Notes under the pieces: generated by a model
What the model was told of the DNA's origin: nothing
The model's database searches: none
The model's input: the letters and a program-made list of their open reading frames with translations, nothing else
Program-made: the position numbers and the translations under genes
Shown: positions 7,328 to 61,752 of the stretch, piece after piece
Layout of the letters: each line of letters begins with the position of its first letter
How positions within the stretch are numbered: the first letter of the stretch is position 1
Assembly (NCBI RefSeq): GCF_058153355.1
Contig: NZ_CM177019.1
Reading direction: 5' to 3' (one strand)
DNA length: 64,000 nt

Positions 7328-7556
7328 TCAATACACTCGACAAACGACCATAAATTAATGGGATCACTATTTCTCATTTAATTAAATATATGAATGTATG
7401 ACTGAAAAATATAATCACAGTCAATGTTTAATTAATAACATTATTTGTTACTAAGATCACATAATACTTTCCTGACCTATGCTTACATAAAAATAAGACA
7501 CGGAGTTCCTTTTATTTAAATAATTCAACCAATGTAACAACCCCTATCAAGGAGGG

Positions 7557-9110: not shown

Positions 9111-9150
9111 AATATCATTTATCAGTCTATTTATTTAACAAGGAATGCGA

Positions 9151-10770
9151 ATGAAAACAGTGCAGCGTACTTTACTTGCCGCAACATTGCTGACTATTTT
9201 TTCGGTCTCAGCCATGGCGCAGGATGTCACGATTATTTATACCAATGATCTTCACGCTCATGTGGATTCTTATAAAGTGCCGTATATCGCAGACGGAAAA
9301 CGCGACATTGGCGGCTTTGCCAATATATCTACTTTAGTAAAACAAGAGAAAGCGAAAAATAAAGCCACCTTTTATTTTGATGCTGGAGACTATTTCACCG
9401 GCCCTTATATCAGCAGTCTGACAAAGGGCGAAGCAATAATTGACATTATGAATACCATGCCTTTTGACGCAGTATCAATCGGTAATCATGAGTTTGACCA
9501 TGGCTGGGATAATGCCCTGCGACAATTAAGCAAAGCGAATTTTCCTGTTTTATTGGGCAATGTTTATCATAAAGAGAGTGAGAAACCCTTCTGGAACAAG
9601 CCCTACACCATCCTGGAAAAAGATGGCATCAAGATTGGTATTATTGGGCTACACGGCGTATTTGCATTTAATGATACGGTCTCGGAGCTCTCTCTCCAGG
9701 GACTCGATAATGACAATAATAACCGCTTTGATAAATCTTCCGAGACCCTTAAGAATCAGGGGATTGAAGCACGTGATGAAGTGAAGTATTTGCAGCATTA
9801 TATCGACGAGTTACGTGATAAGGTTGACCTCACTGTGGCGCTGGTTCATGAAGGCGTTCCGGCGCGTCAGTCCAGCATTGGCATTACAGATGTTAGACGC
9901 GCTCTTGATAAAGATATTCAAACCGCTAGCAAGGTGAAAGGATTGGATATTCTGATTACCGGGCATGCCCACGTCGGAACGCCAGAACCAATCAAAGTCG
10001 GCAACACCTTAATCCTTTCAACTGATAGTGGCGGTATCGATATTGGTAAATTAGTCCTTGATGTCAACCCTACAGCTCGTACCCATAAAATGAAGAGCTT
10101 TGAGCTGAAAACAGTTTATGCCGATGAATGGATACCCGATCCAACGACACAAAAAGTTATCAATGGCTGGAATAAAAAACTGGCGGATATTGTACGCCAA
10201 CCAGTGGGTGAATCATCGATTGCATTAACTCGCGCCTATGGTGAGTCATCGCAACTAGGCAACCTGTTTACCGATGCAATGCTTGTCGCTGCTCCGACTG
10301 CACAGATTGCATTGATAAACTCCGGCAGCTTACGTGCGGATATAAATGCAGGCACGATTACCTTTGGCGACATTACCAGTACATTCCCCTTCAAGAATGA
10401 ACTTACTGAAATGGATCTCAGCGGTAAGGATCTGCGTAACCTACTGGAACACGGGGCATCGCTTACCAATGGCATCCTGCAAATGTCAAAAGGCGCAGAA
10501 ATGCGCTATACCCCGCAGAAACCAGTAGGTCAGCGCATAGTATCTTTTAAAATTAATGGTGAAGAGATCGTTGATACGAATATTTACCATGTTGCAACAA
10601 CGACTTTCCTTGCACTGGGGGGCGATGGTTTTCTGGCATTCAAAGAAGGGAAAAATGTTCAGGTCCGCGCCGGAAAAAACATGTCCGATGTCGTGATCGA
10701 TTATTTGAAGAAAGGCCACAAGATTACGCCTGCACAGGTAAATGAAATGCGGGTGGACGTTAGCAAATAA
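9151..10770 (+). CDS. secreted bifunctional metallophosphatase/5'-nucleotidase-family protein, paralog 3
   Basis: ATG 9151 lies 7 nt after AAGGA (ORF-track start 9145). Very close to paralog 1 over most of its length but with an extra insert of about 25 aa (ELSLQGLDNDNNNRFDKSSETLKNQG). Followed by a hairpin terminator. Confidence 0.85.
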   Translation: MKTVQRTLLAATLLTIFSVSAMAQDVTIIYTNDLHAHVDSYKVPYIADGKRDIGGFANISTLVKQEKAKNKATFYFDAGDYFTGPYISSLTKGEAIIDIMNTMPFDAVSIGNHEFDHGWDNALRQLSKANFPVLLGNVYHKESEKPFWNKPYTILEKDGIKIGIIGLHGVFAFNDTVSELSLQGLDNDNNNRFDKSSETLKNQGIEARDEVKYLQHYIDELRDKVDLTVALVHEGVPARQSSIGITDVRRALDKDIQTASKVKGLDILITGHAHVGTPEPIKVGNTLILSTDSGGIDIGKLVLDVNPTARTHKMKSFELKTVYADEWIPDPTTQKVINGWNKKLADIVRQPVGESSIALTRAYGESSQLGNLFTDAMLVAAPTAQIALINSGSLRADINAGTITFGDITSTFPFKNELTEMDLSGKDLRNLLEHGASLTNGILQMSKGAEMRYTPQKPVGQRIVSFKINGEEIVDTNIYHVATTTFLALGGDGFLAFKEGKNVQVRAGKNMSDVVIDYLKKGHKITPAQVNEMRVDVSK

Positions 10771-10782
10771 TAAAAAAATTAT

Positions 10783-10816
10783 AATGCCATTCATTCACTG
10801 AATGGCATTATTTTCT
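10783..10816 (+). terminator. rho-independent terminator after nucleotidase paralog 3
   Basis: Palindrome AATGCCATTCA...TGAATGGCATT followed by a T-rich run. Confidence 0.6.
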
Positions 10817-10847
10817 CTAAATCAACAATAGATAATGAGATATATTT

Positions 10848-11708
10848 ATGTGTATAAAAAAGCACGGGATAGCTTTATCGATTCTATTAATACCTTGCAT
10901 TGGAAACGCTCAGGAAATTAAAAGTGAGGAAGGCTGGTTACATCAAAGCTTGAATGTCATTGGTCGCACAGACTCTCGCTTTGGCCCAAGGCTGACTAAC
11001 GACCTCTACCCTGAATATACTGTAGCAGGAAGAAAAGACTGGTTTGATTTTTATGGTTATGTTGATCTACCAAAATTCTTTGGCGTCGGCAGTCACTATG
11101 ATGTTGGGATCTGGGATGAGGGCTCACCACTATTTACGGAAATAGAACCTCGGTTTTCCATTGACAAATTGACCGGATTAAATCTTGCGTTCGGCCCTTT
11201 TAAAGAATGGTTCATTGCAAACAACTATGTCTATGATATGGGTGACAACCAGTCATCCCGGCAAAGTACATGGTATATGGGGCTTGGTACAGATATCGAC
11301 ACGGGTCTACCAATTAAGCTTTCTGCCAATATATACGCCAAGTATCAGTGGCAAAACTATGGTGCCGCTAATGAAAATGAATGGGACGGATATCGATTCA
11401 AAATAAAATATAGCATTCCTCTTACCCATTTATTCGGAGGGCGATTGGTATACAATAGTTTTACTAACTTTGATTTTGGATCCGATCTTGCGGACAAATC
11501 ACACAATAATAAACGAACCAGTAATGCTATTGCTTCAAGCCATATCCTTTCCCTGCTATATGAACACTGGAAATTTGCATTTACACTACGTTATTTTCAC
11601 AACGGTGGACAATGGAATGCTGGGGAGAAAGTTAACTTCGGAGATGGTCCATTTGAATTAAAAAACACAGGATGGGGAACCTATACTACTATTGGTTATC
11701 AATTTTAA
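10848..11708 (+). CDS. Tsx-family nucleoside-specific outer-membrane channel (Tsx paralog)
   Basis: 286-aa ORF with signal peptide and long colinear identity to E. coli Tsx ([70 protein letters not shown], terminal F). Confidence 0.85.
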
Positions 11709-25469: not shown

Positions 25470-26186
25470 ATGAGATACGTTATCTTATTAATACTATGGA
25501 TAATAACTACTTTTCTTAGTCATCTTCAGCACAGCAACCTACTGTCTGGAGATCCTGGCATGGTTGGCGAGTATATCGGTTCAGTATTTCTGGGGCCGTT
25601 GTTACTTCCCGTGCTTGTGTCAGGTATTCTGTGCGCATTTATTAAAAAAAAACGTAACTTCGCCAGTTTTACTCGCGGGTGCTGTTGGGTATTGGGAATC
25701 CTGCTTTTATCCAAAGTCGGCAATACGTTTCGTATGTTTACCCCGTGGCAATATACCTTTGAGAATGCTGCGATAACCGTGACTATCCCGAACCGACACT
25801 GGAATACGGTTTCCATCAGTACTAATAAAACCATTGATATAAGAAGTGAGGATAATAGCGTCTTCATTTCTGCTTTCCGCCTGCCCGCAGGACGTAGCGC
25901 CGATGACCCGCTGGAAGCGTTAAAGAAGAAGCAGCGAGACAATCTCAAGGATCAATACAATGAGGAAGCCTTCCAGTTTCATGATTGTAATGCCAAACAT
26001 TTCACCTGTAAGTATCAGGATGTGTTGATAAATTTTGATGGTCAGCAGAAAAGAACCATCAGTGTTTATCTTGAAGACACCCCCAGGGCTGTGGGGATCA
26101 TTGCATTAATGGCGCCAGATACGGCAGATAAATATCGCCAACAGGCGATGGAGATTATGCTTTCCGCTAAAAATGCAGTGAAGTAA
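25470..26186 (+). CDS. hypothetical membrane protein in an AT-rich insertion
   Basis: 238-aa ORF with ATG 6-7 nt after AGGGA. Two to three N-terminal hydrophobic helices, then a soluble domain of about 150 aa. No family recognised. Upstream 250 bp is strongly AT-rich. Confidence 0.55.
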   Translation: MRYVILLILWIITTFLSHLQHSNLLSGDPGMVGEYIGSVFLGPLLLPVLVSGILCAFIKKKRNFASFTRGCCWVLGILLLSKVGNTFRMFTPWQYTFENAAITVTIPNRHWNTVSISTNKTIDIRSEDNSVFISAFRLPAGRSADDPLEALKKKQRDNLKDQYNEEAFQFHDCNAKHFTCKYQDVLINFDGQQKRTISVYLEDTPRAVGIIALMAPDTADKYRQQAMEIMLSAKNAVK

Positions 26187-33466: not shown

Positions 33467-33573
33467 CAAAAAGCAAAGCCTTTGTGCCGATGAATCTCTA
33501 TACTGTTTCACAGACCTGCTGCCCTGCGGGGCGGCCATCTTCCTTTATTCGCTTATAAGCGTGGAGAATTAAA

Positions 33574-34341
33574 ATGCGACATCCTTTAGTGATGGGTAAC
33601 TGGAAACTGAACGGCAGCCGCCACATGGTTCACGAGCTGGTTTCTAACCTGCGTAAAGAGCTGGCAGGTGTTGCTGGCTGTGCGGTTGCAATCGCACCAC
33701 CGGAAATGTACATCGATATGGCGAAGCGCGAAGCTGAAGGCAGCCACATCATGCTGGGTGCGCAAAACGTGGACCTGAACCTGTCCGGCGCATTCACCGG
33801 TGAAACCTCTGCTGCTATGCTGAAAGACATCGGCGCACAGTACATCATCATCGGCCACTCTGAACGTCGTACTTACCACAAAGAGTCTGACGAACTGATC
33901 GCGAAAAAATTCGCGGTGCTGAAAGAGCAGGGGCTGACTCCGGTTCTGTGCATCGGTGAAACCGAAGCTGAAAACGAAGCGGGCAAAACTGAAGAAGTTT
34001 GTGCACGTCAGATCGACGCGGTACTGAAAACTCAGGGTGCTGCAGCATTCGAAGGTGCGGTAATCGCTTACGAACCAGTATGGGCAATCGGTACTGGCAA
34101 ATCGGCAACTCCGGCGCAGGCACAGGCTGTTCACAAATTCATCCGTGACCACATCGCTAAAGTTGACGCTAACATCGCTGAACAAGTGATCATCCAGTAC
34201 GGCGGCTCTGTAAACGCGTCTAACGCTGCAGAACTGTTTGCTCAGCCAGACATCGACGGCGCGCTGGTTGGCGGTGCTTCTCTGAAAGCTGACGCTTTCG
34301 CAGTGATCGTTAAAGCTGCAGAAGCGGCTAAACAGGCTTAA
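33574..34341 (+). CDS. tpiA: triosephosphate isomerase
   Basis: 255 aa; [15 protein letters not shown]; catalytic motifs ([18 protein letters not shown]). Confidence 0.97.
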
Positions 34342-34350
34342 GTCTGACAG

Positions 34351-34380
34351 GTGCCGGATTTCATATCCGGCACTTACTTT
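34351..34380 (+). terminator. rho-independent terminator after tpiA
   Basis: GTGCCGGATTTCATATCCGGCAC palindrome followed by TTACTTT. Confidence 0.75.
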
Positions 34381-34395
34381 CCTTAACTCCTCGCC

Positions 34396-35151
34396 TTAAC
34401 GCAAAATCTCACACTGATGATCCTGGATTTCCTCGGCTGAAGCACGGTTCAGCGTCAGTAGATTTCGTTGTGTCGCCAGCAACACAAACGAATTATCACT
34501 CTGCCGCACCATCGCCAGCCCGTAGCTTCCCATATGTTCCCGCGCCTCAGGCACTTCTTCTGCAAGCATCATAAATGGACTGCGTTGTACCAGTTCGCTT
34601 TCCGTTACCCGACGCGCCAGATATTCATGCCCGCGCAAGCCACCTGGCAGCGGCAACCAGCGACTGCTGATGTTCGCCAGATTATTATCCAGCTGTTCGC
34701 GCACATCAGGGCGAATACAAGAGATATGAATATGAAAATGGTTTTGCGTACGTCCGGTGCGGGAGTTAATCGCTAAAGAAACCGCGCGATCGGGAACCGG
34801 CTGCCCATATTTTTTACTCATAAAATCACGCGCCTGCCAGGCCAACCAAAAAAAGTTAGGCGTAGAAGGATCGGTCAACAAAGGGCTTTCAGTACCGTTA
34901 ATACGATACGTTGGCATCAACAGATATTGCAGTGGACCATTGAGGTCTTTTAAAACCACATATCCGGCATTGGGTTTGACTTCCGCACATGGCGAAGGAT
35001 TTTGATTTTGCTGCTGATTGGGTAAACATTCCTCAAGGACAATCTTACGTAATGTATCCGACTCTTCGCCGGTTAATTTCCAGTAACCAATACCAGCAGC
35101 CACAACGGCGATAACTATCATCACCAAAAAAAGAAGACCCGCTTTTTTCAT
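34396..35151 (-). CDS. cdh: CDP-diacylglycerol pyrophosphatase
   Basis: Native start [24 protein letters not shown] (ATG 35151), 251 aa; ORF-track start 35343 is an upstream extension. Confidence 0.92.
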
Positions 35152-35257
35152 CTTTTTTTCCCTGTACCTCAAAGAGATGCAAGGGTAACGCAAAATCGTG
35201 ACAAATAAAAAACCCGGTCGCGAGAAACCACCGGGGTTGATAATTATCCTGGGGAAA

Positions 35258-36247
35258 TCAGCGTTTGCTGATCTGATCGAACGTACCGCCGTTAGCAAAA
35301 TGCTCTTTTTGCGCTTTCGTCCAGCCGCCGAACTCTTCATCAATGGTGAATAACTTCAATTTTGGAAACGCATTTTCGTACTTTTTCGCTACCTCAGCGT
35401 CGCGCGGACGGTAGTAGTTTTTCGCGGCAATTTCCTGACCTTCTGGCGAGTAGAGATATTTCAGGTAGGCTTCCGCCACCTCTTTAGTACCTTTTTTCTC
35501 AACCACTTTATCGACCACCGACACGGTTGGCTCTGCGAGGATAGACTCACTCGGCGTGACGATTTCGAATTTATCTTTCCCCAGTTCATTCGCTGCCAGC
35601 AGAGCTTCGTTTTCCCAGGCAATCAGTACATCGCCAATTCCGCGCTCGACAAAAGTGTTAGTGGAGCCGCGCGCGCCAGAATCCAGAACTTCGACGTTTT
35701 TATACAGTGCCCGAACAAAATCCTGCGCTTTTGCCTGATCGTTGTTGTTGTGGTGCAGCGCGTAGCCCCAGGCAGCCAGGTAGTTCCAGCGCGCGCCACC
35801 AGAGCTTTTCGGATTAGGCGTGATCACCGAAACACCCGGTTTAATCAGATCGTTCCAGTCATGGATCTGCTTCGGATTGCCCTTACGTACCAGGAAAACA
35901 ATGGTGGAAGTGTACGGTGCGGAGTTATCCGGCAGACGTTTGATCCACTCTTTATCAATCCGCCCGCGTTCCGCAATTGCGTCCACGTCATAGGCCAGAG
36001 CCAGAGTGACAACATCAGCTTCAATACCATTGATTACCGACGTCGCTTGTTTGCCTGAACCACCGTGTGACTGACGAATCACCACGTTATCGCCAGTTTG
36101 CTGTTTCCAGTGGGCGCTGAATGCCTTGTTGTACTGTTCGTACAATTCGCGCGTTGGATCATATGAAACGTTAAGAAGCTGAATATCCTTTGCCATAACG
36201 CTGGTTGCCGCCAGCAAAAATGTTAACCCTACGCCCCACTTGTTCAT
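35258..36247 (-). CDS. sbp: periplasmic sulfate-binding protein
   Basis: 329-aa [39 protein letters not shown]. Confidence 0.95.
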
Positions 36248-36411
36248 CGCCCGACTCTCTTATGTTGTGTTGTGATGAGCAAAGCGTGCCAGAAGGTTAA
36301 CCAAACATTAAAGAATAAAAAAAGATTGGCTATAACTTGCGGGTATATGTTGGGGGATTAAAAAGGCGGAAGAAATCCGCCTCATATTGCTGATAAAGTG
36401 CGCTTTGTCCA

Positions 36412-36510
36412 TGCCATATGCGGCGCGAACGCCTTATACGGCCTACAAAAGTTTGCAAATTCAATAAATTGCAGAATTCATGTAGGCCTGATAAGCGAAG
36501 CGCATCAGGC
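36412..36510. repeat. REP palindromic units, pfkA-sbp intergenic
   Basis: CCATATGCGGCGCGAACGCCTTATACGGCCTACA and TGTAGGCCTGATAAGCGAAGCGCATCAGGC. Confidence 0.8.
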
Positions 36511-36566
36511 ATTTTTGCTTCTGTCATCGGTTTCAGGCTAAAGGAATCTGCCTTTTTCCGAAATCA

Positions 36567-37529
36567 TTAATACAGTTTTTTCGCGCAGTCCAGCCAGTCG
36601 CCTTTGAACGGACGCTTCATGTTTTCGATAGCGTCGATGATGTCGTGGTGAACCAGCTGTTCGTTCTGGATACCTACACAACGACCGCCGTAACCTGCCA
36701 GCAGCAGTTCAATGGCGTAAGCACCCATACGGGAAGCCAGAATACGGTCGTAAGGCACCGGAGAACCACCACGCTGAATGTGGCCCAACACAGTTGCACG
36801 GGTTTCACGACCAGTTTCTTTCTCGATGAAATGCGCCAGTTCGTCAACATCACACATATGTTCGGTAATCGCCACGATCGCGTGTTTTTTACCTTTCGCG
36901 ATACCCGCTTTGATTTCGTTTACCAGGTCTTCACGGCTGAATTCAACTTCCGGAACTACAACGAATTCACAGCCACCGGCAATGGCCGCAGCCAGGGTCA
37001 GATCGCCACAATAACGACCCATCACTTCCACCACGGAAATACGCTGGTGAGAAGAAGAGGTGTCACGCAGACGGTCGATCGCTTCTACAACGGTGCTCAG
37101 CGCAGTGAAGAAACCGATAGTGTAGTCAGTGCCTTTGATGTCGTTGTCGATAGTGCCCGGCAGGCCGATGCACGGGAAGCCCATTTCGGTCAGACGCATT
37201 GCACCCATGTAGGAACCGTCACCGCCGATAACCACCAGCGCGTCGATACCACGTTTTTTCAGGTTTTCGATAGCCACGGCGCGGATGTTCTCGTCGCGGA
37301 ATTCCGGGAAACGCGCAGAACCGAGGAACGTACCGCCACGGTTGATCATGTCAGACACGCTGTAACGGTCTAGCTGTACCATACGGTCTTCATACAGACC
37401 CAGATAGCCGTCATAAATACCCATTACTTCCAGACCTTCTGTCAGCGCAGAACGAACAACCCCGCGAATTGCGGCGTTCATGCCTGGCGCATCACCGCCG
37501 CTTGTCAACACACCGATTTTCTTAATCAT
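36567..37529 (-). CDS. pfkA: ATP-dependent 6-phosphofructokinase I
   Basis: Native start [25 protein letters not shown] (ATG 37529), 320 aa. Confidence 0.97.
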
Positions 37530-37709
37530 GACTACCTCTGAACTTTGGAATGCAAAATGAAATCTGTTGCCGGAAGTCTTCTTGCACATCGAAGTGATCC
37601 AACGAATGTGCAAATAGTATAACAATCACTTCCTGCTGAATTGATTCAGGTCAGGCCAAATGGCGGTATTTTATACACAAAATGCGGGTCTGGCTCTCTT
37701 TTATACTGA

Positions 37710-38760: not shown

Positions 38761-39261
38761 CTACTGGGAACGTGAGTTGCTACTACTCAATAGCTTCAAC
38801 GATGAACTTTTTTGCCATTGCGTCACGTCGCGCAACTGCTCCATTCGTTGTTGATGTTTCTCGTTTAAAACCGCTTGCTGCTCCGGCGTTAACAGGCGAT
38901 ACATTTGGTTGCGGACTTTTGCCATCTCAACCTGACGAGCAATTTGCTCATTCGCCATTTTTTCTGCCTGTGCGCGCACAGCGTTTTCATCAAAATTTTC
39001 TGCGGTGACAAGGCGATGCATTGTCTCCAGTTCGCTAACATTAACAGGAGGCTGTTCGTGCCGGGCCTGTTGCATAAGATCTCGCATCTGCTGACGCTGA
39101 TGTTCGGTTAAACTTATGCCGTCGAACATATGGCTCTGCGTACTGCGCTGCGTAAGTTCTTCACCCGGATGCCAGTTATCGCCTGAACCGACTTCAGCAG
39201 CGTGGCTTAATGAACTGACTGCCAGCGTTGAGGCCATGACGGCAGCGGTAACTATGCGCAT
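38761..39261 (-). CDS. cpxP: periplasmic stress adaptor CpxP
   Basis: Native start [24 protein letters not shown], 166 aa; two LTxxQ motifs. Confidence 0.95.
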
Positions 39262-39340
39262 CATTTGCTCCCAAAATCTTTCTGTCGCGATTCAACGATA
39301 GAGAGTTTACGATTCAGGCTGCAAACATGCGTCAGGGGGT

Positions 39341-51629: not shown

Positions 51630-53024
51630 TCAGAAGAAGTATTTAAAGCGAACGCGTGCGCCGTAACGGTCATCAGTATCATCACCGTGTTTTTTATCAC
51701 CGTCGCTATCCAGAATGGAGTAATAAGTACCAAGGTAAATATTAAAGTTCTCCATATCCATCACATTAGCGAACTGATAAGACGCATGAATGGTGTGAAT
51801 GGTGTACGTCCCTTCATCATCAATCCAGCAGTCGTTATCACAAACTACACCGCTGAATTCATCAATCTTATTGTGCGCGTAGATATAACCCAGCTCGAAA
51901 CGTTTCCACAGCGCGTTAATCCCGGCAGTGAAATCTTTTTCATTATTAGCATCTAAATAGGCGGTATTAAGATTAACCACGACGCCATTTTCCGGATCCG
52001 TTTTCAGGCCATTCCAGGTCATGCTCATACCATAGCCGGTACGATCGGACTGATCGACAAAATTACCCTTGCTATCGGTATAACCATAAGCATTATTTAC
52101 TACGTTCGCTTCCATCGCTGCGGAAACGGTGAATTCTTCCGTCGGCGACCAGGCAATTACCGGACGCAGATAAGCAACATTTTTCTGCTGCTTCATATCG
52201 CGTCCATGATAATTACCGTCATTATATAAAGATGTTCCGTCTTCAAGTAACGTGTTTAATTCAAAATACCAGTTATCGAGTTGTTTGCTGACGAGGAAAT
52301 TACCGCCAGCGTTAGAGCGCCCGCGGCCCTCTTTCATCATATAGATATAACCGCTGCCATCGTCATAAAGATCGTTCGCAGTATTACCGGAATGTTCAAC
52401 AAAGGTATCCTGATTCAGCGGGAACATATCGTAGGCTTCAAAACGGCCTACTTTGACCTTCCAGTCGTTTTCTTTGCCAAAGAAGAATACCGCATCATCG
52501 ATATTTACTGAACCGTGCATATCCCCCAGCGGTTGTGCGGAGAACCCGGCGAAATAACCATTATCCAGTTTTCGCATACCATCAAAACCTAACAGAATAC
52601 GACCATTGAGATTCCACTGTTCATTAGTGGGATCGCTATTCACATCAGCGTTGGTCATTGCCAGCAGGCCATGATTACTTTCCGCATCCATATTAAATTC
52701 TACGTCGCCGTAGATTTTTAAATCGCCATAACCTGAAAGCAAAAGATTAGGTGAGGTGGCATTTTTCTTTGCAGATTCCGCCGTTGTCTGTCCATTTACC
52801 GGCGTATTGCCCTGGGCAGCCTTAATTTCGCGGATCTCAGCGGCTTGTTGTGTCTGCAGCTGTTTTACCTGCCCCTCTGCTTTTGCTGCCCGCATTTCTG
52901 CCGCTTCCAGGCGTTCTTCCAGCAATGCCATGCGTTGTTCCAGCGTTAAATGCTGTGTTTTTGCCATTCCGGTACTACATGCCAATAATAAACCGATGGC
53001 TAAAGATAATGTCGATTTTTTCAT
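51630..53024 (-). CDS. putative outer-membrane carbohydrate-selective porin (OprB/ScrY-like: N-terminal coiled coil plus beta-barrel)
   Basis: 464-aa ORF with signal peptide MKKSTLSLAIGLLLACSTGMA, about 50 aa of coiled coil (LEQRMALLEERLEAAEMRAAKAEGQVKQLQ), an aromatic/Gly-rich alternating region and C-terminal ...RFKYFF typical of OM beta-barrels. Family assignment is inferred. Confidence 0.6.
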   Translation of the reverse strand: MKKSTLSLAIGLLLACSTGMAKTQHLTLEQRMALLEERLEAAEMRAAKAEGQVKQLQTQQAAEIREIKAAQGNTPVNGQTTAESAKKNATSPNLLLSGYGDLKIYGDVEFNMDAESNHGLLAMTNADVNSDPTNEQWNLNGRILLGFDGMRKLDNGYFAGFSAQPLGDMHGSVNIDDAVFFFGKENDWKVKVGRFEAYDMFPLNQDTFVEHSGNTANDLYDDGSGYIYMMKEGRGRSNAGGNFLVSKQLDNWYFELNTLLEDGTSLYNDGNYHGRDMKQQKNVAYLRPVIAWSPTEEFTVSAAMEANVVNNAYGYTDSKGNFVDQSDRTGYGMSMTWNGLKTDPENGVVVNLNTAYLDANNEKDFTAGINALWKRFELGYIYAHNKIDEFSGVVCDNDCWIDDEGTYTIHTIHASYQFANVMDMENFNIYLGTYYSILDSDGDKKHGDDTDDRYGARVRFKYFF

Positions 53025-53500: not shown

Positions 53501-53947
53501 ATGGCAGCACTTACTGCAAGCTGTATTGACCTGAATATTCAGGGCAATGGCACTTATTCCGTTCTGAAGCAGTTAGCGACAATGGCGTTACAAAACGGTT
53601 TTATCACCGACTCACATCAATTCCTGCAAACCCTGCTGGTGCGCGAAAAAATGCACTCCACCGGTTTTGGTTCTGGTGTCGCCGTGCCGCACGGTAAAAG
53701 CGCCTGTGTTAAACAACCGTTCGTATTATTCGCTCGCAAAGCGCAGGCCATTGACTGGAAAGCCAGCGATGGCGAAGACGTCAATTGCTGGATCTGCCTC
53801 GGCGTGCCGCAAAGTGGCGAAGAGGATCAGGTCAAAATCATCGGCACACTGTGTCGCAAAATTATCCACCAGGATTTTATCAACCAACTGCGACAAGGCG
53901 ACGCCGTCCAGGTGCTTGCTTTGTTAAATCAAACCCTCAGCTCATAA
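53501..53947 (+). CDS. frvA: PTS fructose-like EIIA component
   Basis: Native start MAALTASCIDLNIQGNGTYSVLKQ, 148 aa; ORF-track start 53372 is extended upstream. Confidence 0.92.
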   Translation: MAALTASCIDLNIQGNGTYSVLKQLATMALQNGFITDSHQFLQTLLVREKMHSTGFGSGVAVPHGKSACVKQPFVLFARKAQAIDWKASDGEDVNCWICLGVPQSGEEDQVKIIGTLCRKIIHQDFINQLRQGDAVQVLALLNQTLSS

Positions 53948-53957
53948 GGAAGTGGCG

Positions 53958-55409
53958 ATGGAGTCATCCTTACGTATTGTCGCGATCACCAACTGCCCCG
54001 CCGGGATCGCTCACACCTACATGGTGGCGGAAGCCCTGGAACAGAAAGCCCGTTCTCTCGGTCATACCATTAAAGTTGAAACTCAAGGATCAAGCGGCGT
54101 CGAAAACCGCTTATCCAGCGAAGAGATTGCCGCTGCCGATTACGTGATTCTCGCTACCGGGCGTGGCCTGAGCGGTGATGATCGCGCGCGATTTGCCGGG
54201 AAAAAGGTTTATGAGATTGCCATCTCCCAGGCGCTGAAAAATATCGACCAGATTTTCAGTGAATTACCGACAAACTCACAACTTTTTGCCGCAGATAGCG
54301 GCGTGAAGCTCGGCAAACAGGAAGTGCAAAGTGGCAGCGTAATGAGCCATCTGATGGCGGGCGTCTCTGCGGCGCTGCCGTTTGTCATCGGTGGCGGTAT
54401 CCTGGTGGCGCTTGCCAACATGCTGGTGCAGTTCGGTTTGCCGTATACCGATATGTCGAAAGGTGCGCCGTCGTTTACCTGGGTGGTTGAATCCATCGGT
54501 TATCTCGGTTTCACCTTTATGATCCCCATCATGGGCGCTTATATTGCCTCGTCGATTGCCGATAAACCCGCTTTCGCTCCGGCGTTTCTGGTTTGTTATC
54601 TGGCGAACGACAAAGCCCTGCTCGGCACCCAGTCTGGCGCGGGCTTCCTCGGTGCGGTGGTGCTTGGGCTGGCGATTGGCTATTTCGTCTTCTGGTTCCG
54701 TAAAGTGCGCCTTGGCAAAGCATTACAACCGCTGCTCGGTTCCATGCTGATCCCGTTCGTTACTCTGCTGGTTTTTGGCGTACTGACTTACTACGTTATC
54801 CGACCGGTGATGTCCGACCTCATGGGCGGGTTGCTGCACTTCCTGAACACCATTCCTCCGTCAATGAAGTTTGCGGCGGCGTTTCTGGTTGGTGCGATGC
54901 TGGCATTCGATATGGGCGGCCCCATCAACAAAACCGCCTGGTTCTTCTGCTTCTCTCTGCTGGAAAAACACATTTACGACTGGTACGCCATCGTCGGCGT
55001 TGTCGCGCTAATGCCGCCTGTCGCGGCGGGTCTTGCGACGTTCATTGCGCCCAAACTGTTTACTCAACAGGAAAAAGAAGCCGCCAGTAGCGCCATAGTG
55101 GTCGGTGCCACAGTCGCAACCGAACCGGCTATTCCTTACGCTCTGGCAGCCCCGTTGCCGATGATTACCGCCAATACGCTGGCGGGCGGTATTACCGGCG
55201 TGCTGGTGATCGCTTTCGGAATCAAACGTCTGGCACCTGGTTTGGGTATCTTTGACCCGCTGATCGGCCTGATGTCGCCGGTAGGTTCGTTTTATCTGGT
55301 GCTGGCGATTGGCCTCGCGCTGAACATTTCATTCATTATCGTCCTGAAAGGATTATGGTTACGCCGCAAAGCCAAAGCTGCGCAACAGGAGCTTGTCCAT
55401 GAACATTGA
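53958..55409 (+). CDS. frvB: PTS fructose-like EIIBC component
   Basis: MESSLRIVAITNCPAGIAHTYM (EIIB Cys) followed by a polytopic EIIC domain, 483 aa; ATG 53958 is 8 nt after AAGGA. Confidence 0.93.
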   Translation: MESSLRIVAITNCPAGIAHTYMVAEALEQKARSLGHTIKVETQGSSGVENRLSSEEIAAADYVILATGRGLSGDDRARFAGKKVYEIAISQALKNIDQIFSELPTNSQLFAADSGVKLGKQEVQSGSVMSHLMAGVSAALPFVIGGGILVALANMLVQFGLPYTDMSKGAPSFTWVVESIGYLGFTFMIPIMGAYIASSIADKPAFAPAFLVCYLANDKALLGTQSGAGFLGAVVLGLAIGYFVFWFRKVRLGKALQPLLGSMLIPFVTLLVFGVLTYYVIRPVMSDLMGGLLHFLNTIPPSMKFAAAFLVGAMLAFDMGGPINKTAWFFCFSLLEKHIYDWYAIVGVVALMPPVAAGLATFIAPKLFTQQEKEAASSAIVVGATVATEPAIPYALAAPLPMITANTLAGGITGVLVIAFGIKRLAPGLGIFDPLIGLMSPVGSFYLVLAIGLALNISFIIVLKGLWLRRKAKAAQQELVHEH

Positions 55410-56469
55410 GTTACTGCAACAGTTGTGCGAAGCCAGCGCCGTCAGCGGCGATGAACAGGAAGTTCGCGACATTCTGATGAACACGCTGGAACCCTGCGTG
55501 AATGAGATCACCTTCGATGGTCTGGGCAGCTTTGTTGCCCGTAAGGGGAATAAAGGGCCGAAAGTTGCCGTTGTCGGGCATATGGATGAAGTCGGCTTTA
55601 TGGTCACCCACATCGACGAGAGCGGTTTTCTGCGTTTTACCACCATTGGCGGCTGGTGGAATCAGTCGATGCTCAACCACCGGGTAACCATACGCACACA
55701 CAAGGGAGTGAAAATCCCTGGTGTAATTGGCTCCGTCGCGCCACATGCGTTAACCGAAAAGCAAAAGCAACAACCGCTGTCATTTGATGAGATGTTCATT
55801 GATATTGGCGCGAACAGTCGCGAAGAAGCGGAAAAACGTGGCGTGGAAATTGGCGATTTTATTAGCCCGGAAGCCAATTTTGCCTGCTGGGGCGAAGATA
55901 AAGTGGTCGGCAAGGCGTTGGATAACCGCATCGGCTGCGCAATGATGGCTGAACTATTGCAGACGGTGAATAACCCCGAAATTACGCTTTATGGCGTTGG
56001 CAGTGTGGAAGAAGAAGTTGGGCTACGCGGGGCACAAACCTCGGCTGAACACATTAAACCGGATGTGGTGATCGTGCTGGATACCGCCGTCGCGGGCGAT
56101 GTTCCGGGCATTGATAACATTAAATACCCGCTGAAACTGAGCAACGGGCCGGGGCTGATGTTGTTTGACAAGCGCTACTTCCCCAACCAGAAACTGGTAG
56201 CAGCGTTAAAAAACTGTGCCGTACATAACGATTTACCACTGCAATTTTGCACCATGAAAACCGGAGCGACGGATGGCGGGCGCTACAACGTGATGGGCGG
56301 CGGGCGTCCGGTTGTCGCGCTGTGCCTGCCAACGCGTTATCTGCACGCTAACAGCGGCATGATTTCAAAAGCCGATTACGATGCTCTGCTCACGTTGATA
56401 AGGGATTTTCTGACCACCTTAACCGCGGAGAAAGTCAACGCGTTTAGCCAGTTCCGTCAGGTGGATTAA
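55399..56469 (+). CDS. frvX: M42-family aminopeptidase/endoglucanase-like protein FrvX
   Basis: MNIELLQQLCEASAVSGDEQEVRDIL, 356 aa; overlaps the frvB 3' end. Confidence 0.92.
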   Translation: MNIELLQQLCEASAVSGDEQEVRDILMNTLEPCVNEITFDGLGSFVARKGNKGPKVAVVGHMDEVGFMVTHIDESGFLRFTTIGGWWNQSMLNHRVTIRTHKGVKIPGVIGSVAPHALTEKQKQQPLSFDEMFIDIGANSREEAEKRGVEIGDFISPEANFACWGEDKVVGKALDNRIGCAMMAELLQTVNNPEITLYGVGSVEEEVGLRGAQTSAEHIKPDVVIVLDTAVAGDVPGIDNIKYPLKLSNGPGLMLFDKRYFPNQKLVAALKNCAVHNDLPLQFCTMKTGATDGGRYNVMGGGRPVVALCLPTRYLHANSGMISKADYDALLTLIRDFLTTLTAEKVNAFSQFRQVD

Positions 56470-57794
56470 TGCTAAACGAACGCCAGTTAAAGATTGTCGA
56501 TCTGCTGGAGCAACAGCCACGCACGCCTGGCGAGCTGGCGCAACAGACTGGCGTTTCTGGCAGGACCATCCTGCGTGATATTGACTATCTCAACTTTACC
56601 CTTAACGGCAAAGCCCGCATTTCCGCCAGTGGCAACGCGGGCTATCAGCTGGAAATCTTCGAGCGCCGCAGCTTTTTTCAGTTGCTGCAAAAGCACGATA
56701 ACGACGATCGGCTGCTGGCGCTGTTATTACTGAATACCTTCACTCCCCGTGCGCAACTCGCCTCGGCGCTTAATTTGCCAGAAACGTGGGTCGCAGAGCG
56801 TCTGCCCCGCCTGAAACAGCGCTATGAACGCGGTTTTTGTCTCGCTAGTCGCCCTGGTTTGGGCCATTTCATTGATGAGACAGAAGAGAAACGCATTATT
56901 TTGCTGGCGAATCTTTTACGCAAAGATCCGTTTTTAATTCCGCTGTCGGGAGTAACACGAGACAATTTTCAACAATTAACCACCGCCTGCGAAAAGCAAC
57001 GTCGCTGGCCGCTGATGCAAGGCGACTATCTCTCAAGCCTGATTCTGGCTATTTACGCGTTGCGTAATCAGCTTACTGACACATGGCCTGAATATCCCGG
57101 TAGCGAGATAAAACAGATTGTTGAATATAGCGGCCTGTTTCTTGGTGATAACGCTGTAAGAACGCTGACGGGGTTGATAGAAAAACAGTATCAGCAAGCA
57201 CAGGTAATTTCTGCCGATCATGTGCTGGCATTGCTGCAAAGGGTGCCGGGCATTGCGTCATTGAATATTATTGATACGCAGCTGGTTGAGAATATTACCG
57301 GGCATTTATTACGTTGCCTTGCCGCGCCGGTGTGGATTGGTGAGCACCGCCAAAGCAGCATGAATAACCTGAAAGCCGCCTGGCCTGCGGCCTTTGATAT
57401 GAGTCTGCACTTTATTACGCTACTGCGTGAACAGCTCGATATTCCCCTTTTCGACAGCGATCTGATTGGTTTGTATTTTGCCTGTGCGCTGGAACGGCAT
57501 CAAAACGAACGCCAGCCGATCATTTTGCTCTCTGATCAGAACGCGATTGCCACTATTAATCAGCTCGCCATTGAGCGCGATGTCCTGAATTGTCGGGTGA
57601 TTATTGCCCGCAGCGTAAGCGAACTGGTTGCCATTCGCGAAGAGATTGAGCCGTTATTGATCATTAATAACAGCCATTATTTACTGGATGACGCGGTCAA
57701 TAATTGCATCATCGTAAAAAATATCATTACGGCTGCCGGTATCGAACAAATAAAACATTTTCTGGCGACGGCATTTATTCGCCAGCAACCGGAG

Positions 57795-59220
57795 TAATGC
57801 CGATCAGTTAAGGATCAGTTGACCGATCCAGTGGCTGTGTAAGAATCCGGAAACGCTCACTTGTTTCCGGATTTTTTTATGCACATTGGACAGGCTCTTG
57901 ATCTGGTATCCCGTTACGATTCTCTGCGTAACCCACTGACTTCTCTGGGGGATTACCTCGACCCCGAACTCATCTCTCGTTGCCTTGCCGAATCAGGTAC
58001 TGTAACGCTACGCAAGCGCCGTCTTCCCCTCGAAATGATGGTCTGGTGTATTGTTGGCATGGCGCTTGAGCGTAAAGAACCTCTTCACCAGATTGTGAAT
58101 CGCCTGGACATCATGCTGCCGGGCAATCGCCCCTTCGTTGCCCCCAGTGCCGTTATTCAGGCCCGCCAGCGCCTGGGAAGTGAGGCTGTCCGCCGCGTGT
58201 TCACGAAAACAGCGCAGCTCTGGCATAACGCCACGCCGCATCCGCACTGGTGCGGCCTGACCCTGCTGGCCATCGATGGTGTGTTCTGGCGCACACCGGA
58301 TACACCAGAGAACGATGCAGCCTTCCCCCGCCAGACACATGCCGGGAACCCGGCGCTCTACCCGCAGGTCAAAATGGTCTGCCAGATGGAACTGACCAGC
58401 CATCTGCTGACGGCTGCAGCCTTCGGCACGATGAAGAACAGCGAAAATGAGCTTGCTGAGCAACTTATAGAACAAACCGGCGATAACACTCTGACGTTAA
58501 TGGATAAAGGTTATTACTCACTGGGACTGTTAAATGCCTGGAGCCTGGCGGGAGAACACCGCCACTGGATGATACCTCTCAGAAAGGGAGCGCAATATGA
58601 AGAGATCAGAAAACTGGGTAAAGGCGATCATCTGGTGAAGCTGAAAACCAGCCCGCAGGCACGAAAAAAGTGGCCGGGACTGGGAAATGAAGTGACAGCC
58701 CGCCTGCTGACCGTGACGCGCAAAGGAAAAGTCTGCCATCTGCTGACGTCGATGACGGACGCCATGCGCTTCCCCGGAGGAGAAATGGCGGATCTGTACA
58801 GTCATCGCTGGGAAATCGAACTGGGATACAGGGAGATAAAACAGACGATGCAACTGAGCAGGCTGACGCTGAGAAGTAAAAAGCCGGAGCTTGTGGAGCA
58901 AGAGCTGTGGGGTGTCTTACTGGCTTATAATCTGGTGAGATATCAGATGATTAAAATGGCGGAACATCTGAAAGGTTACTGGCCGAATCAACTGAGTTTC
59001 TCAGAATCATGCGGAATGGTGATGAGAATGCTGATGACATTGCAGGGCGCTTCACCGGGACGTATACCGGAGCTGATGCGCGATCTTGCAAGTATGGGAC
59101 AACTTGTGAAATTACCGACAAGAAGGGAAAGGGCCTTCCCGAGAGTGGTAAAGGAGAGGCCCTGGAAATACCCCACAGCCCCGAAAAAGAGCCAGTCAGT
59201 TGCTTAACTGACTGGCATTA
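57795..59220 (+). mobile_element. IS4 insertion sequence (1426 bp) with 12-bp target site duplication
   Basis: Terminal inverted repeats TAATGCCGATCAGTTAAG (left) and CTTAACTGACTGGCATTA (right), 16/18 complementary. Element length is exactly 1426 bp. Direct repeats CAGCAACCGGAG at 57783-57794 and 59221-59232. Confidence 0.95.
57879..59207 (+). CDS. insG: IS4 transposase
   Basis: 442-aa product [34 protein letters not shown]... matching the IS4 transposase; ORF-track start 57861 is an upstream extension. Confidence 0.95.
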
Positions 59221-59658
59221 CAGCAACCGGAGCGTTTTTTTTCTGCCCCCGGAAGTTTTCATTATTCGAATGTACGTGGTGAAAGCTGGCAACATATTAC
59301 CCGGCAAATATGTGCTCAATTAGTGACGCAACACCACATTACCGCCGATGAAGCACAACGGATCATCGCCCGCGAAAGCGAAGGCGAAAACCTGATTGTT
59401 AATCGTCTCGCCATCCCACATTGCTGGAGCGAACAGGAACGACGTTTTCGTGGATTTTTTATTACCCTCGCCCAACCGGTTGAGGTGAATAACGAAGTAG
59501 TTAACCATGTGCTGATCGCCTGTGCCGCCGCCGATGCGCGTCATGAGCTAAAAATATTTAGCTATCTTGCCAGCGTATTGTGTCAGCATCCGGCAGAGGT
59601 TATTGCCGGGTTAACAGGATATGAGGCATTTATGGAGTTACTTCACAAGGGGTGAACT

Positions 59659-59683
59659 GTGTCGGATGCGCCGCATCCGACAC
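59659..59683. terminator. palindromic hairpin between frvR and yiiG (probable bidirectional terminator)
   Basis: GTGTCGGATGCG-C-CGCATCCGACAC near-perfect palindrome directly after the frvR stop. Confidence 0.6.
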
Positions 59684-59710
59684 TGCATTTATCACCAAAA
59701 TCAAAAACAT

Positions 59711-60766
59711 TTAACGCAGGCGATTATAGTCATCGACCATTTCGTTGTACTCGCGTAACGCTCGCGGAAATGAGTCGTCGACCATCCAGCTGGTGTTTGC
59801 ATCCTGAAGTTGCTCTTTATCCCAGTCAGAGTACGGAACTTTATCTCTGACGCGGCGAACATATTTTTTAGCCTCGAGTTGATACTGGTCTGCCGAATTA
59901 ATGAACGAGAAATTCATACCGCCTTTATCCGCTTCTTTGGCCTGCGCCACCAGCGTTTCCAGTTCAGAGACTTTCTTCATTGCCGCATCAACATCAAACT
60001 TCTCTTGCGAAATCAGGTTATTAATTTGTTTCGCTGAAATCATGACTGCCAGGGAGTAGTAGTGGAATGTTTTTCCTTCTGTTTCTTCAATATTTTTCAG
60101 TTCCGCAAGCTGACGCTTATCGTTAATTTCCTGAATCGCCGCATGATAAGATTCTGCTACAGGTTCAAAGGCTTCAAGATTTTTTAAGAATGTCTGGTGC
60201 AGCGTTTTCCCTTTCGCAAACGCATCGTCTTTATAATTTTCCTGGGTGTAATATTTATCCATTTCGTTAATGGTATTACCCAACGCCACGGCAGCATCAA
60301 TATAACTCACCGCCACGCCATCAATAGGTTGCAGCGCAGGCGTTAACGCCACAGCACTTTTTACGCCTTTTTCACACTCAGCGAGGTTGGATTCACTAAT
60401 ACCGTAGATACCATAAACAGTACGCTCTTCACCGGTAGGGCCCTGTTTAAAATCTTTCAGCCAGTCAGCATAACGCGCCAGACTGCTCTGTACAGGGATC
60501 TGTAACTTGTTGTAGCACTTGATATAGACATCCATTTTTTCGTCGAAAACCGCTTGTTCATCGACCACCGGTTGAGCAGGCGTTTCAGGTTTAACTTCTG
60601 CTTTTGTAACGGGAGCTTCAGCAGGTTTCGCTTCAGGAGCTGGTGCGGCAGGTTGACTATTGGCAGGCGGGGGCGTTTCTGTTTCGGTTTTTTTATCATC
60701 ACAACCCGTGATACCGAGAGCCATGATGGCGGCTATAATAGCGGAAGATAATAAATTCCTTTTCAT
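59711..60766 (-). CDS. yiiG: DUF3829 lipoprotein YiiG
   Basis: 351-aa ORF with lipoprotein signal (LGITGC lipobox) and an Ala/Pro-rich linker. Confidence 0.88.
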   Translation of the reverse strand: MKRNLLSSAIIAAIMALGITGCDDKKTETETPPPANSQPAAPAPEAKPAEAPVTKAEVKPETPAQPVVDEQAVFDEKMDVYIKCYNKLQIPVQSSLARYADWLKDFKQGPTGEERTVYGIYGISESNLAECEKGVKSAVALTPALQPIDGVAVSYIDAAVALGNTINEMDKYYTQENYKDDAFAKGKTLHQTFLKNLEAFEPVAESYHAAIQEINDKRQLAELKNIEETEGKTFHYYSLAVMISAKQINNLISQEKFDVDAAMKKVSELETLVAQAKEADKGGMNFSFINSADQYQLEAKKYVRRVRDKVPYSDWDKEQLQDANTSWMVDDSFPRALREYNEMVDDYNRLR

Positions 60767-60918
60767 TTAATTGCCTTATAAATATATAGATAAGAGAGTA
60801 AACATAATAAAGGAAAAAAGAAAATGCCACTACACGCGTTTTGTTTATAAATAAAACGATAAAATTCACGAAATGAATAAGTCCTGCAATTTAATATATA
60901 TCGCAGGACTTATTTTAA

Positions 60919-61752
60919 TTAATTACTCAAACGCTGCGGATGGGTATAAACCGTTGCCCGACCCGGCTTACAAAAGCCCACCAGCGTCAAATTACAGCGC
61001 TCAGCCACTTCTACGGCAAGCGTGGTCGCGGCAGACACCGCAAACAAAATTTCTACGCCGCACATCGCTGACTTTTGCACCATTTCATAACTGGCACGAC
61101 TGGAAACCAGCACCGCACCTTGCTGCCAGCTTTCCCCTTCTTGTGACCGGCGGCCTAACAGTTTATCCAGCGCCACATGGCGACCCACGTCTTCATGCCC
61201 GCCTACCAGTTCGCCAGATGGCAACATCCAGGCAGCGGCGTGAGTACAACCAGTCAGTTGCCCCACTGGCTGGAAATCATTGAGATGGCGTAATGCATCA
61301 TCCAGTTTGTTGAGATCAAATGTCTGAGTGAACGGCAGCGGCTGCACCGGTTTACCGATGTCATTAAGTTGCTCCACGCCGCACACGCCACATCCCGTAC
61401 GTCCCGCCAGTGCCCGACGACGCTCCTTCAACCCCATAAAGCGGCGGCTGGAAAGCTCAATTTGCACTTCCAGACCATTACAGGAAGGAACGACATCCAT
61501 ACCGAAGATATCGCGCGGACTTTCGATAATCCCCTCGGAAAGCGAAAAACCGAGCGCAAAGTATTCAAGGTCTTTGGGCGACGCCATCATCACCACATGC
61601 GAAATGCCGTTGTAGACCAGCGCAACGGGAACCTCTTCCGCCACCTCATCTAACCGTGGGTGTTGTAAATCGTCACGCCGCCATAACTCAATTTGACGAA
61701 CACCTGTGACATTTATCACATTTTTGATTTCTTTTTGCTGTGTTTTTTTCAC
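60919..61752 (-). CDS. fdhD: formate dehydrogenase accessory sulfurtransferase FdhD
   Basis: 277-aa [31 protein letters not shown]. Confidence 0.93.

Follow-up and report, generated by a model that had tools for sequence, protein, structure and literature searches.

Insertion of a complete IS4 element, flanked by a 12-bp target duplication, into frvR of a strain of Escherichia coli

The stretch of DNA analysed here (referred to below as the window, 64,000 nucleotides in length) carries the frv genes in the order frvA-frvB-frvX-frvR-yiiG, as seen also in E. coli K-12 and in the related E. coli L003. Three of these genes are intact and lie on the plus strand, namely frvA (53501-53947; PTS_EIIA_2), frvB (53958-55409; PTS_IIB/EIIC) and frvX (55399-56469; Peptidase_M42); these calls and their Pfam families were made on a 99.99%-identical contig (L001) and mapped to the window, and the annotations of L003 and K-12 agree with them. 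The fourth, frvR, is present on the same strand as two fragments. The 5' fragment (56469-57797) consists of 442 codons, ending at 57794, followed by a TAA stop codon that is supplied by bases 1-3 of an inserted IS4 element, while the 3' fragment (59233-59655) comprises codons 443-582 plus the stop. Joining 56469-57794 to 59233-59655 restores one open frame of 582 amino acids, which scores 1025 bits against the NCBIfam equivalog model PRK09863 (cutoff 426) over profile positions 1-586; the preliminary description, in which the insertion followed codon 442 and the frame resumed beyond it, is thus borne out. The insertion is without polar effect on other genes, frvR standing at the end of the operon and its neighbour yiiG being convergent. 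In the literature searched, frvR, which encodes a putative regulator, and the frv operon, a cryptic one for sugar uptake, appear as list mentions only, and no functional study of either was found.

The density of insertion sequences in the window as a whole is low. Two open reading frames resembling InsB of IS1 (167-168 amino acids) were considered as further candidates, and with them a Shigella origin; both ideas were dropped in view of this low density, the frame at 38761-39264 being cpxP by synteny and the other lying in a colinear, K-12-like rraA region.

The element within frvR occupies 57795-59220 on the plus strand, in the same orientation as frvR, and is complete at 1426 bp, which is the length of IS4 in K-12 MG1655 and falls within the 1400-1650 bp range of the IS4 subgroup (PMC2266710). 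Its terminal inverted repeats are each of 18 bp, the left (57795-57812, plus strand) reading TAATGCCGATCAGTTAAG and the right (59203-59220, minus strand) reading, as its reverse complement, TAATGCCAGTCAGTTAAG; the two match at 16 of 18 positions, and both ends fit the end signature of the subgroup, -AATR--------WTW (PMC2266710, Table 1). Relative to the K-12 copy there are three mismatches (1423 of the 1426 positions are identical), while the copies in strains IAI39 and SCU-172 differ by a single nucleotide. Of 5426 complete E. coli genomes, 2479 contain copies with 99.9% identity, and near-identical copies in RefSeq are annotated as "IS4-like element IS4 family transposase". By these sequence comparisons the element is IS4 itself, belonging to the IS4 subgroup of the IS4 family.

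The InsG-type transposase of the element is encoded on the plus strand at 57879-59207, from an ATG at 57879 to a stop codon ending at 59207, as 442 codons with no internal stop. (That the transposase and the frvR 5' product both have 442 residues is a coincidence.) Members of the IS4 family are recognised by a single-ORF transposase with the catalytic hallmarks D(60-110)D(100-150)E and Y(2)R(3)E(6)K (PMC2266710), both of which are present: the DDE triad is formed by D133, D209 and E314, with spacers of 75 and 104 residues, and the Y(2)R(3)E(6)K motif begins at residue 307. The protein also matches the Pfam families Nterm_IS4 (3e-33) and DDE_Tnp_1 (9e-32), as well as the NCBIfam model transpos_IS4_1 (304 bits against a cutoff of 115). 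All of this, from the length of the element and its imperfect repeats to the size of the transposase, lies where the preliminary description had placed it. The protein is identical to WP_000483766.1, with one synonymous difference at the nucleotide level, and this is the transposase carried by IAI39 and SCU-172, in which IS4 occupies 15 and 18 places respectively. It differs from InsG of K-12 at two amino acids (A304 in place of G, and L326 in place of R), and in both cases the residue found here is the variant present in these two multi-copy strains. As its ends are intact as well, the copy in frvR is probably mobile.

On either side of the element lies the 12-bp sequence CAGCAACCGGAG, the left copy (57783-57794) corresponding to frvR codons 439-442 (QQPE) and the right copy (59221-59232) matching it at 12 of 12 positions, as had been claimed and as holds on re-inspection; the probability that such a match would arise by chance at fixed positions is about 6e-8. 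A length of 12 bp lies inside the expected range of 10-13 bp, and other complete IS4 copies in the set compared have duplications of 11-12 bp. When the window was aligned with the uninterrupted frvR of L003, the sequence was found there just once, and the two alignments obtained overlapped by exactly the 12 duplicated bases. [quoted passage not shown]

Insertion sequences are common sites of misassembly, and some metagenome contigs (L076, L057 and L061) carry IS4 with flanks that do not match, so it might be supposed that IS4 was misplaced into frvR through repeat collapse or a chimeric join. However, intact frvR has the 12-bp sequence only once, and its perfect duplication around the element is what true transposition leaves behind; in addition, identical junctions occur in independent short-read assemblies: the left junction in SRR28786219 and SRR31441161, whose contigs stop 26 nt into IS4, and the right junction in SRR31441161, on a contig (L117) that starts within IS4. 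An artefact of assembly is therefore barely credible. The frvR::IS4 allele itself was found on three short-read contigs only. IS4 occupies this site in none of the 5426 complete E. coli genomes (among which the best identity to the flanks of the element is about 99.1%, the figures for K-12 being 94-98%), and an exact search of GTDB species-representative genomes for the left junction gave no match.

The consensus target of IS4 is AAA-N20-TTT. For the present analysis a target profile was built from 62 distinct other half-sites, taken from contigs of Kosakonia genomes and of gut metagenomes, and its consensus reads CaCC....GGgG, then 2-4 nt, then a run of T. Most of the cores among the 62 half-sites are predicted to fold as hairpins, and the sites are mostly terminator-like, being followed by T-runs. 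The right half-site in frvR has the form CAGC...GGAG, then 2 nt, then a run of eight T (59235-59242, plus strand), which begins two bases past the duplication and makes up the T-run arm. At 16.0 bits it is the best match in the window among the 62,489 positions read in its own orientation, and third of 124,978 when both orientations are considered, while the whole site ranks eighth. The left half-site is neutral (0.1 bits) and has no A-run, and the duplicated core does not form a hairpin. Judged by this profile, the insertion site appears to be non-random and is only half-canonical, which would imply that IS4, although found mostly in sites combining a hairpin with a T-run, can also enter coding sequence bearing just one of the two arms. 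A good target match does not in itself make the site a hotspot, since none of the 5426 complete genomes carries IS4 here even though a related strain has the identical target.

As to what may remain of FrvR, Pfam places an HTH_11 domain at residues 5-60 and a PTS_EIIA_2 domain at residues 455-560, while in an AlphaFold model (pLDDT 83.5) the order is two winged-helix domains, a helical, PRD-like region, an EIIB-like alpha/beta domain and an EIIA-like domain. The fold of the model matches AtxA, MgaSpn and 3sqn with E values of 5e-10 to 3e-9 over 473-497 aligned columns, these targets having 468-482 residues and all lacking an EIIA domain; the EIIA-like domain for its part matches EIIA-Ntr and EIIA-Mtl with TM scores of 0.70-0.75. 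Sequence identity to these fold matches is only 12-16%. Pfam gave no PRD or Mga domain in FrvR at E <= 10, and sequence and profile searches of the PDB yielded nothing beyond weak matches to EIIA-Ntr. His505 (codon 59419-59421) is invariant in 31 homologues and aligns with the region of the active-site His of EIIA-Ntr. In terms of the model, the break falls after the last EIIB-like helix (422-439) and before the first EIIA-like strand (451-453), so that IS4 sits in a linker, with an AtxA/Mga-like core (residues 1-442) on one side and the EIIA-like domain containing His505 on the other.

This position bears directly on what the insertion does to the gene. The preliminary description had frvR inactivated, of which the splitting of the gene after codon 442 stands, whereas what is lost is only the C-terminal EIIA-like domain, the 442-residue core remaining encoded. 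Inactivation is plausible, and is unproven because a folded but deregulated truncated protein is conceivable. On such a reading the insertion would not be a knockout and would cleanly remove one domain, with FrvR(1-442) folding, binding DNA and escaping phosphorylation by the PTS, leaving frv locked either on or off. The location of the break in the linker between the EIIB-like and EIIA-like domains fits this, as do the fold matches to full-length AtxA, MgaSpn and 3sqn, none of which has an EIIA domain, and the invariance of His505 in homologues suggests that the domain lost was probably a working phospho-switch. In activators of the MtlR/LicR type, moreover, the C-terminal EIIB- and EIIA-like domains modulate activity and do not carry it. 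However, a PRD in the middle region of FrvR lacks Pfam sequence support, and the frequent absence of frvR, or its disruption at many positions, points to relaxed selection more than to selected remodelling; on balance a surviving, deregulated regulator seems unlikely.

Several candidate transcription signals lie in or close to the element. A sigma-70-like site (TTGACC, 16 nt, TG-AAGAAT; 57819-57846, plus strand) was picked out by a consensus scan as a candidate promoter for the transposase, in a region where promoter-like sites are no more numerous than in shuffled sequences. Directly 5' of the transposase ATG, at 57841-57876 on the plus strand, is a hairpin with a 15-bp stem followed by a U-run, for which RNA folding gives -39.8 kcal/mol (z = -4.7; none of 200 shuffles was as stable). 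It is predicted to be terminator-like, and may serve to hide the start region from transcription entering from frvR. At the other end a terminator scan and folding identified a hairpin at 59191-59216 on the minus strand, overlapping the right inverted repeat and with a T-rich tail on that strand, which would be terminator-like toward transcription entering from the right. It had been proposed earlier that sequences reading outward from IS4 could affect the 3' fragment of frvR, but the promoter scan found neither an outward-facing nor a hybrid promoter at the right end, and this part of the earlier account is thus unsupported. The first in-frame start in the 3' fragment is a GTG at 59323 with no obvious ribosome-binding site, and initiation there would leave out about the first 20 residues of the EIIA domain. 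The 3' fragment is most likely silent.

Loss of full-length FrvR is by no means peculiar to this strain. The gene is absent from 1220 of the 5426 complete E. coli genomes (22%), it is interrupted by IS1 in E. coli 12690 (NZ_CP074977.1), and the T8 run next to the IS4 site is elsewhere a frameshift-prone homopolymer, with T8 shortened to T7 in L113 and L115 and a T6/C6 variant in L114, each of which breaks the frame. A further allele (CAA to TAA, giving a stop at Q462) occurs in L112 and L116. The lesions in L112-L116 all lie within about 60 nt on the 3' side of the IS4 site and belong to the same allele group, and several independent lesions so close together could be taken to mean that the insertion was favoured by selection, loss of the EIIA domain recurring through some advantage in growth or colonisation. 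However, these alleles were found by exact lookup of a 110-residue C-terminal open reading frame, which returns only lesions in that stretch, and the clustering, being an artefact of ascertainment, was set aside as evidence of selection. Nor do the other observations help: the homopolymer is intrinsically prone to slippage, a cluster of truncated FrvR proteins spans many fragment lengths (205-491 residues, some being partials at contig ends), and the IS4 allele itself was seen on three short-read contigs only. (A 448-residue partial FrvR, P0048, from a cluster of 1875 members, was considered as a possible instance of the IS4 allele and rejected as a contig-end truncation.) Selection for loss of the domain is accordingly very improbable. 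A more ambitious reading, in which IS4 precisely removed one domain and so turned a PTS-controlled, MtlR/LicR-like FrvR into a regulator that resembles AtxA/Mga, has no EIIA domain, is free of control by phosphorylation and alters the expression of the cryptic frv genes, with the nearby alleles hinting at repeated selection in this E. coli lineage, is likewise very improbable. As frvR is dispensable in E. coli, we regard a neutral or nearly neutral lesion as most likely.

The account preferred here is that one classical copy of IS4 transposed into frvR, and in its fuller form, taking in the choice of site, the truncation, the silent 3' fragment and insulation by hairpins, we consider it highly probable. 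IS4 would have entered by the DDE-transposase route, with cuts staggered by 12 bp whose filling-in produced the CAGCAACCGGAG duplication. Resemblance of the downstream half of the site to one arm of the preferred target is the probable reason for its choice; that target would be a GC-rich, often hairpin-forming core of 11-13 bp that starts with C-A, C-G or C-C, ends with G and is followed 2-4 nt on by a T-run; such preferred targets would normally be intrinsic terminators. The TAA supplied by IS4 would end translation after Glu442, so that at most FrvR(1-442) would be made, without the putatively phosphorylatable EIIA-like domain (His505), and the terminator-like hairpins at the two ends of the element would probably halt transcription arriving from outside on either side.

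As an event this is of an already known kind, an ordinary strain-specific mutation, and it is of little importance beyond strain bookkeeping. Within those bounds, the insertion marks a clone: at least two other read sets have it and none of the 5426 complete E. coli genomes does, so that it might be used for PCR or typing as a marker specific to the lineage. The strain carries a probably mobile copy of IS4, and the allele, a natural one that parts the DNA-binding core of FrvR from the EIIA-like domain, would be a convenient starting point for characterising this putative regulator.

The closest comparison is with the type element, IS4 of K-12 (insG, b4278), which has the same 1426 bp, 18-bp repeats and single ORF for a 442-residue transposase, and which is likewise flanked by a 12-bp duplication, in that case CAGAACCAAGAT; it lies between yjgZ and nanX, however, whereas the copy described here is inside frvR. 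In IAI39 (NC_011750.1) the IS4 copy downstream of adhE has, as in frvR, a 12-bp core that starts with C, with a T-run beginning 2-4 nt beyond it. A typical IS4 site is intergenic and symmetric, with an A-run, a GC hairpin and a T-run, while that in frvR is coding and has the T-run arm only, with an unfolded core. The other natural lesions of frvR (IS1, T8 to T7, the stop at Q462, and outright absence) likewise remove full-length FrvR, though by different mechanisms and at different positions, and among the lesions compared the allele in the window is the only one to involve IS4. Finally, for the interrupted gene as distinct from the element, the modelled FrvR resembles, at the level of fold, PRD-containing regulators of the Mga/AtxA type and of the MtlR/LicR type, the latter having an additional C-terminal EIIA-like domain, and its domain order may be theirs, even though the Pfam models for PRD and Mga domains miss it.

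A complete copy of IS4, exactly 1426 bp in length (57795-59220, from a reading of 56300-59900 checked by script), lies within frvR, in the same orientation as the gene and immediately after codon 442. Its 18-bp terminal inverted repeats are identical at 16 of 18 positions (left end TAATGCCGATCAGTTAAG; right end, reverse-complemented, TAATGCCAGTCAGTTAAG), and its transposase ORF runs uninterrupted for 442 codons, from an ATG at 57879 to a stop ending at 59207. The 12-bp direct repeat CAGCAACCGGAG abuts the element on both sides (57783-57794 and 59221-59232). When the uninterrupted frvR of a related E. coli (L003) is aligned to the window, two alignments result that overlap by exactly these 12 bases; CAGCAACCGGAG therefore occurs only once in the empty site, which by definition makes the repeat a target-site duplication. 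The 5' ORF of frvR starts at 56469 and extends for 442 codons, its TAA stop being supplied by the first three bases of IS4 itself, while splicing 56469-57794 to 59233-59655 by script yields one open frame of 582 aa, which matches the NCBIfam equivalog for FrvR (PRK09863) end to end (1025 bits, cutoff 426). The observation of frvR::IS4 in the preliminary description, namely a complete element after codon 442, a 12-bp target duplication and a frvR frame that resumes beyond it, is confirmed in all particulars.

The exact 442-aa truncated FrvR is also encoded in the short-read assemblies of SRR28786219 and SRR31441161, on contigs that are 99.99-100% identical to the window, share its left junction and end 26 nt into IS4; a second contig from SRR31441161 begins within IS4 and has the same right junction as the window. 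Misassembly of the junctions can be dismissed, given that the same ones appear in SRR28786219 (left) and SRR31441161 (both). Among complete E. coli genomes the allele was found in none of 5426 (no match spanning 80% or more of the 3187-bp query), the left junction was not found in the species-representative genome set, and none of 85 metagenome contigs that end in the IS4 right end carries a frvR flank. Since matching junctions occur in short-read assemblies and are absent from complete genomes, the allele is genuine, rare and clonal. The window flanks reach about 99.1% identity at best to any complete E. coli genome, and 94-98% to K-12.

As to what the break does to the protein, Pfam places HTH_11 at FrvR residues 5-60 and PTS_EIIA_2 at 455-560, and an AlphaFold model (31 homologues, mean pLDDT 83.5) has two winged-helix domains (1-63 and 76-135), an all-helical region (139-343), an alpha/beta domain (349-439) followed by a short linker, and an EIIA-like domain (451-582). 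From these borders it follows that the break after residue 442 falls exactly in the inter-domain linker. In Foldseek searches of the PDB the N-terminal core matches AtxA (4r6i), MgaSpn (5way) and the Enterococcus Mga-family structure 3sqn (E = 5e-10 to 3e-9 over 473-497 aligned columns), so far as the model goes FrvR(1-442) corresponding to a complete AtxA/Mga-type architecture, and the C-terminal domain matches EIIA-Ntr and EIIA-Mtl (TM 0.70-0.75). The motif AIPHCW, which contains His505, aligns with the EIIA-Ntr active-site region; this histidine is invariant across the 31 homologues. Its codon (59419-59421) is on the severed 3' fragment, and the lost part would be a putative phospho-regulatory EIIA-like domain.

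The preliminary description had called frvR inactivated. The truncation at residue 442 stands, its interpretation is on the whole supported, and loss of function is the most economical reading of it. With the break in the linker, leaving an AtxA/Mga-type core from which a putative phospho-regulatory domain has been removed, a stable and deregulated FrvR(1-442) is a real though unlikely alternative; that the insertion amounts to a functional domain deletion, giving a deregulated FrvR that lacks EIIA and is perhaps under selection, is very improbable, and would be of moderate interest if true. In the literature searched FrvR appeared only in transcription-factor lists, no characterised function or target being found.

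The insertion is one further lesion in frvR, and as such unremarkable. Among 5426 complete E. coli genomes, 1220 lack the gene, 4181 have it in one piece and about 25 more have it in fragments; one of the last is NZ_CP074977.1, where it is broken by IS1. A cluster of truncated FrvR proteins (90% identity) includes pieces of widely varying length, from both E. coli and Shigella flexneri, and some are simply contig-end partials. Other contigs carry independent natural knock-outs, none more than about 60 nt from where IS4 is inserted: the T8 run at 59235-59242 is T7 in two contigs of the window's own allele group (L113 and L115) and a T6/C6 variant in a third (L114), with a frameshift in each case, and in two more (L112 and L116) codon 462 has changed from CAA to a TAA stop. 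These were found through an exact 110-aa downstream ORF, a lookup biased to this stretch, and their clustering was accordingly rejected as a sign of selection. Altogether FrvR has the look of an accessory regulator that is dispensable and often decays. Draft E. coli contigs of a different lineage (L109, GCA_025431375.1, four samples; and L110) end in frvR at ...CTGCCCCC(G), 18 bp downstream of the IS4 duplication, where there may be another repeat or mobile element.

A promoter-like site lies just inside the left end of IS4 (57819-57846), and directly upstream of the transposase ATG there is a hairpin with a 15-bp stem and U-run (57841-57876; -39.8 kcal/mol, z = -4.7), while at the right end a hairpin that overlaps the inverted repeat resembles a terminator when read on the minus strand. 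These end structures probably shield the transposase gene from transcription that enters from outside, and frv read-through would be expected to halt some 80 nt past the new frvR stop codon. The suggestion that outward-reading IS4 sequences could affect the frvR 3' fragment finds no support: no outward-facing promoter-like site was found at the right end, and the fragment's first in-frame start, GTG 59323 (giving 110 aa from FrvR residue 473, within the EIIA domain), has no obvious Shine-Dalgarno on reading. No polarity is expected, because frvR ends its operon and yiiG is convergent.

The target consensus of IS4 is AAA-N20-TTT. Ends and flanks gathered from Kosakonia oryziphila contigs, gut-metagenome contigs and K-12 gave 62 distinct half-sites, in which the duplicated core starts C-A, C-G or C-C and tends to finish G-G-x-G, with a T-run 2-4 nt further on and, as its mirror image, an A-run on the opposite side. 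This pattern agrees with the consensus. It agrees also with the "spectacular" conservation in both target arms described for some IS4-subgroup elements (PMC2266710). Short GC hairpins are predicted for most cores, and IS4 therefore sits mostly in bidirectional terminator-like sites, as just downstream of adhE in IAI39. A position weight matrix built from these half-sites, none of them that of frvR, and scored on the window with the insertion removed, gave the frvR right half-site CAGCAACCGGAG CG TTTTTTTT 16.0 bits, ranking it first of 62,489 positions in the same orientation and third of 124,978 with both orientations pooled; the insertion point is thus probably explained by the known kind of target preference of IS4. 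At 0.1 bits the left half-site is neutral; the site as a whole still ranks 8th, and in K-12 the corresponding stretch, CAACAGCCGGAG CG TTTTTTCT, scores 13.0 bits, below the allele in the window. The frvR target is only half-canonical, within coding sequence, and no population hotspot.

Several other features of the window deserve brief mention. The stretch 59221-60922 (frvR 3' fragment and yiiG) has 96.5% identity to L003, as against about 99% in neighbouring stretches, a drop that suggests a recombination boundary near frvR. In L003, the closest complete E. coli genome, yiiG and fdhD are separated by a 4.5-kb insert (its 33540-37683, window about 60770-60920) that is absent from the window and K-12; the insert codes for a TPR protein and for an ATP-binding protein of HATPase/HSP90-like type, and may be a defence-type island. 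Adjoining metL, at 441-11708, is an accessory block that K-12 does not have there, comprising genes for a MocR/PdxR-like regulator, alanine-racemase-like and serine-hydroxymethyltransferase-like proteins, three UshA/5'-nucleotidase-like paralogues, a 375-aa ORF without family match and a Tsx-like nucleoside channel; the block has the look of an island for scavenging nucleosides or amino acids. Between rhaM and frvA lies a gene for a 464-aa carbohydrate porin (51630-53024, minus strand; Pfam Porin_8), which the closest E. coli relatives have and K-12 lacks, and a 238-aa ORF (25470-26186, plus strand; no NCBIfam match, a hypothetical protein in the L003 annotation) sits in about 1 kb, between rraA and zapB, that is not in K-12.

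Outside Escherichia, at least 16 contigs of Kosakonia oryziphila REICA_142 (L007-L022) carry the IS4 left end with 40 nt identical to the E. coli element, which indicates a recent expansion there, and Photorhabdus khanii has a copy as well. A 265-bp contig of Methylobacterium mesophilicum NBRC 15688 has the left end with the exact K-12 flank …ACACCAGAACCAAGAT, and appears to be contamination of the assembly by E. coli K-12. Three metagenome contigs (L076, L057 and L061) have a complete IS4 whose left and right flanks share no duplication, L076 having the K-12 site on the left and a different one on the right; this points to IS4-IS4 recombination or chimeric assembly.

Judged by its sequence, the element in the window is IS4 itself and more than a mere relative: many genomes have copies annotated as IS4 to which it is 99.9% identical, and 2479 of 5426 complete E. 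coli genomes contain one or more near-full-length copies. The transposase matches Pfam Nterm_IS4 and DDE_Tnp_1 and NCBIfam transpos_IS4_1, and has D133, D209 and E314, separated by 75 and 104 residues, and Y(2)R(3)E(6)K from 307, the DDE spacing and this motif being listed hallmarks of the IS4 family (PMC2266710). It may reasonably be inferred that the element is potentially active. In length it equals the annotated IS4 of K-12 MG1655, from which it differs at three nucleotides, with two amino-acid differences in the transposase (A304 vs G, L326 vs R). From the copies in IAI39 and SCU-172, which among complete E. coli genomes have 15 and 18 IS4 places respectively, it differs by one synonymous change, the transposase protein being identical (WP_000483766.1); it is the already-known IS4 at a site without previous record, yet an explicable one.
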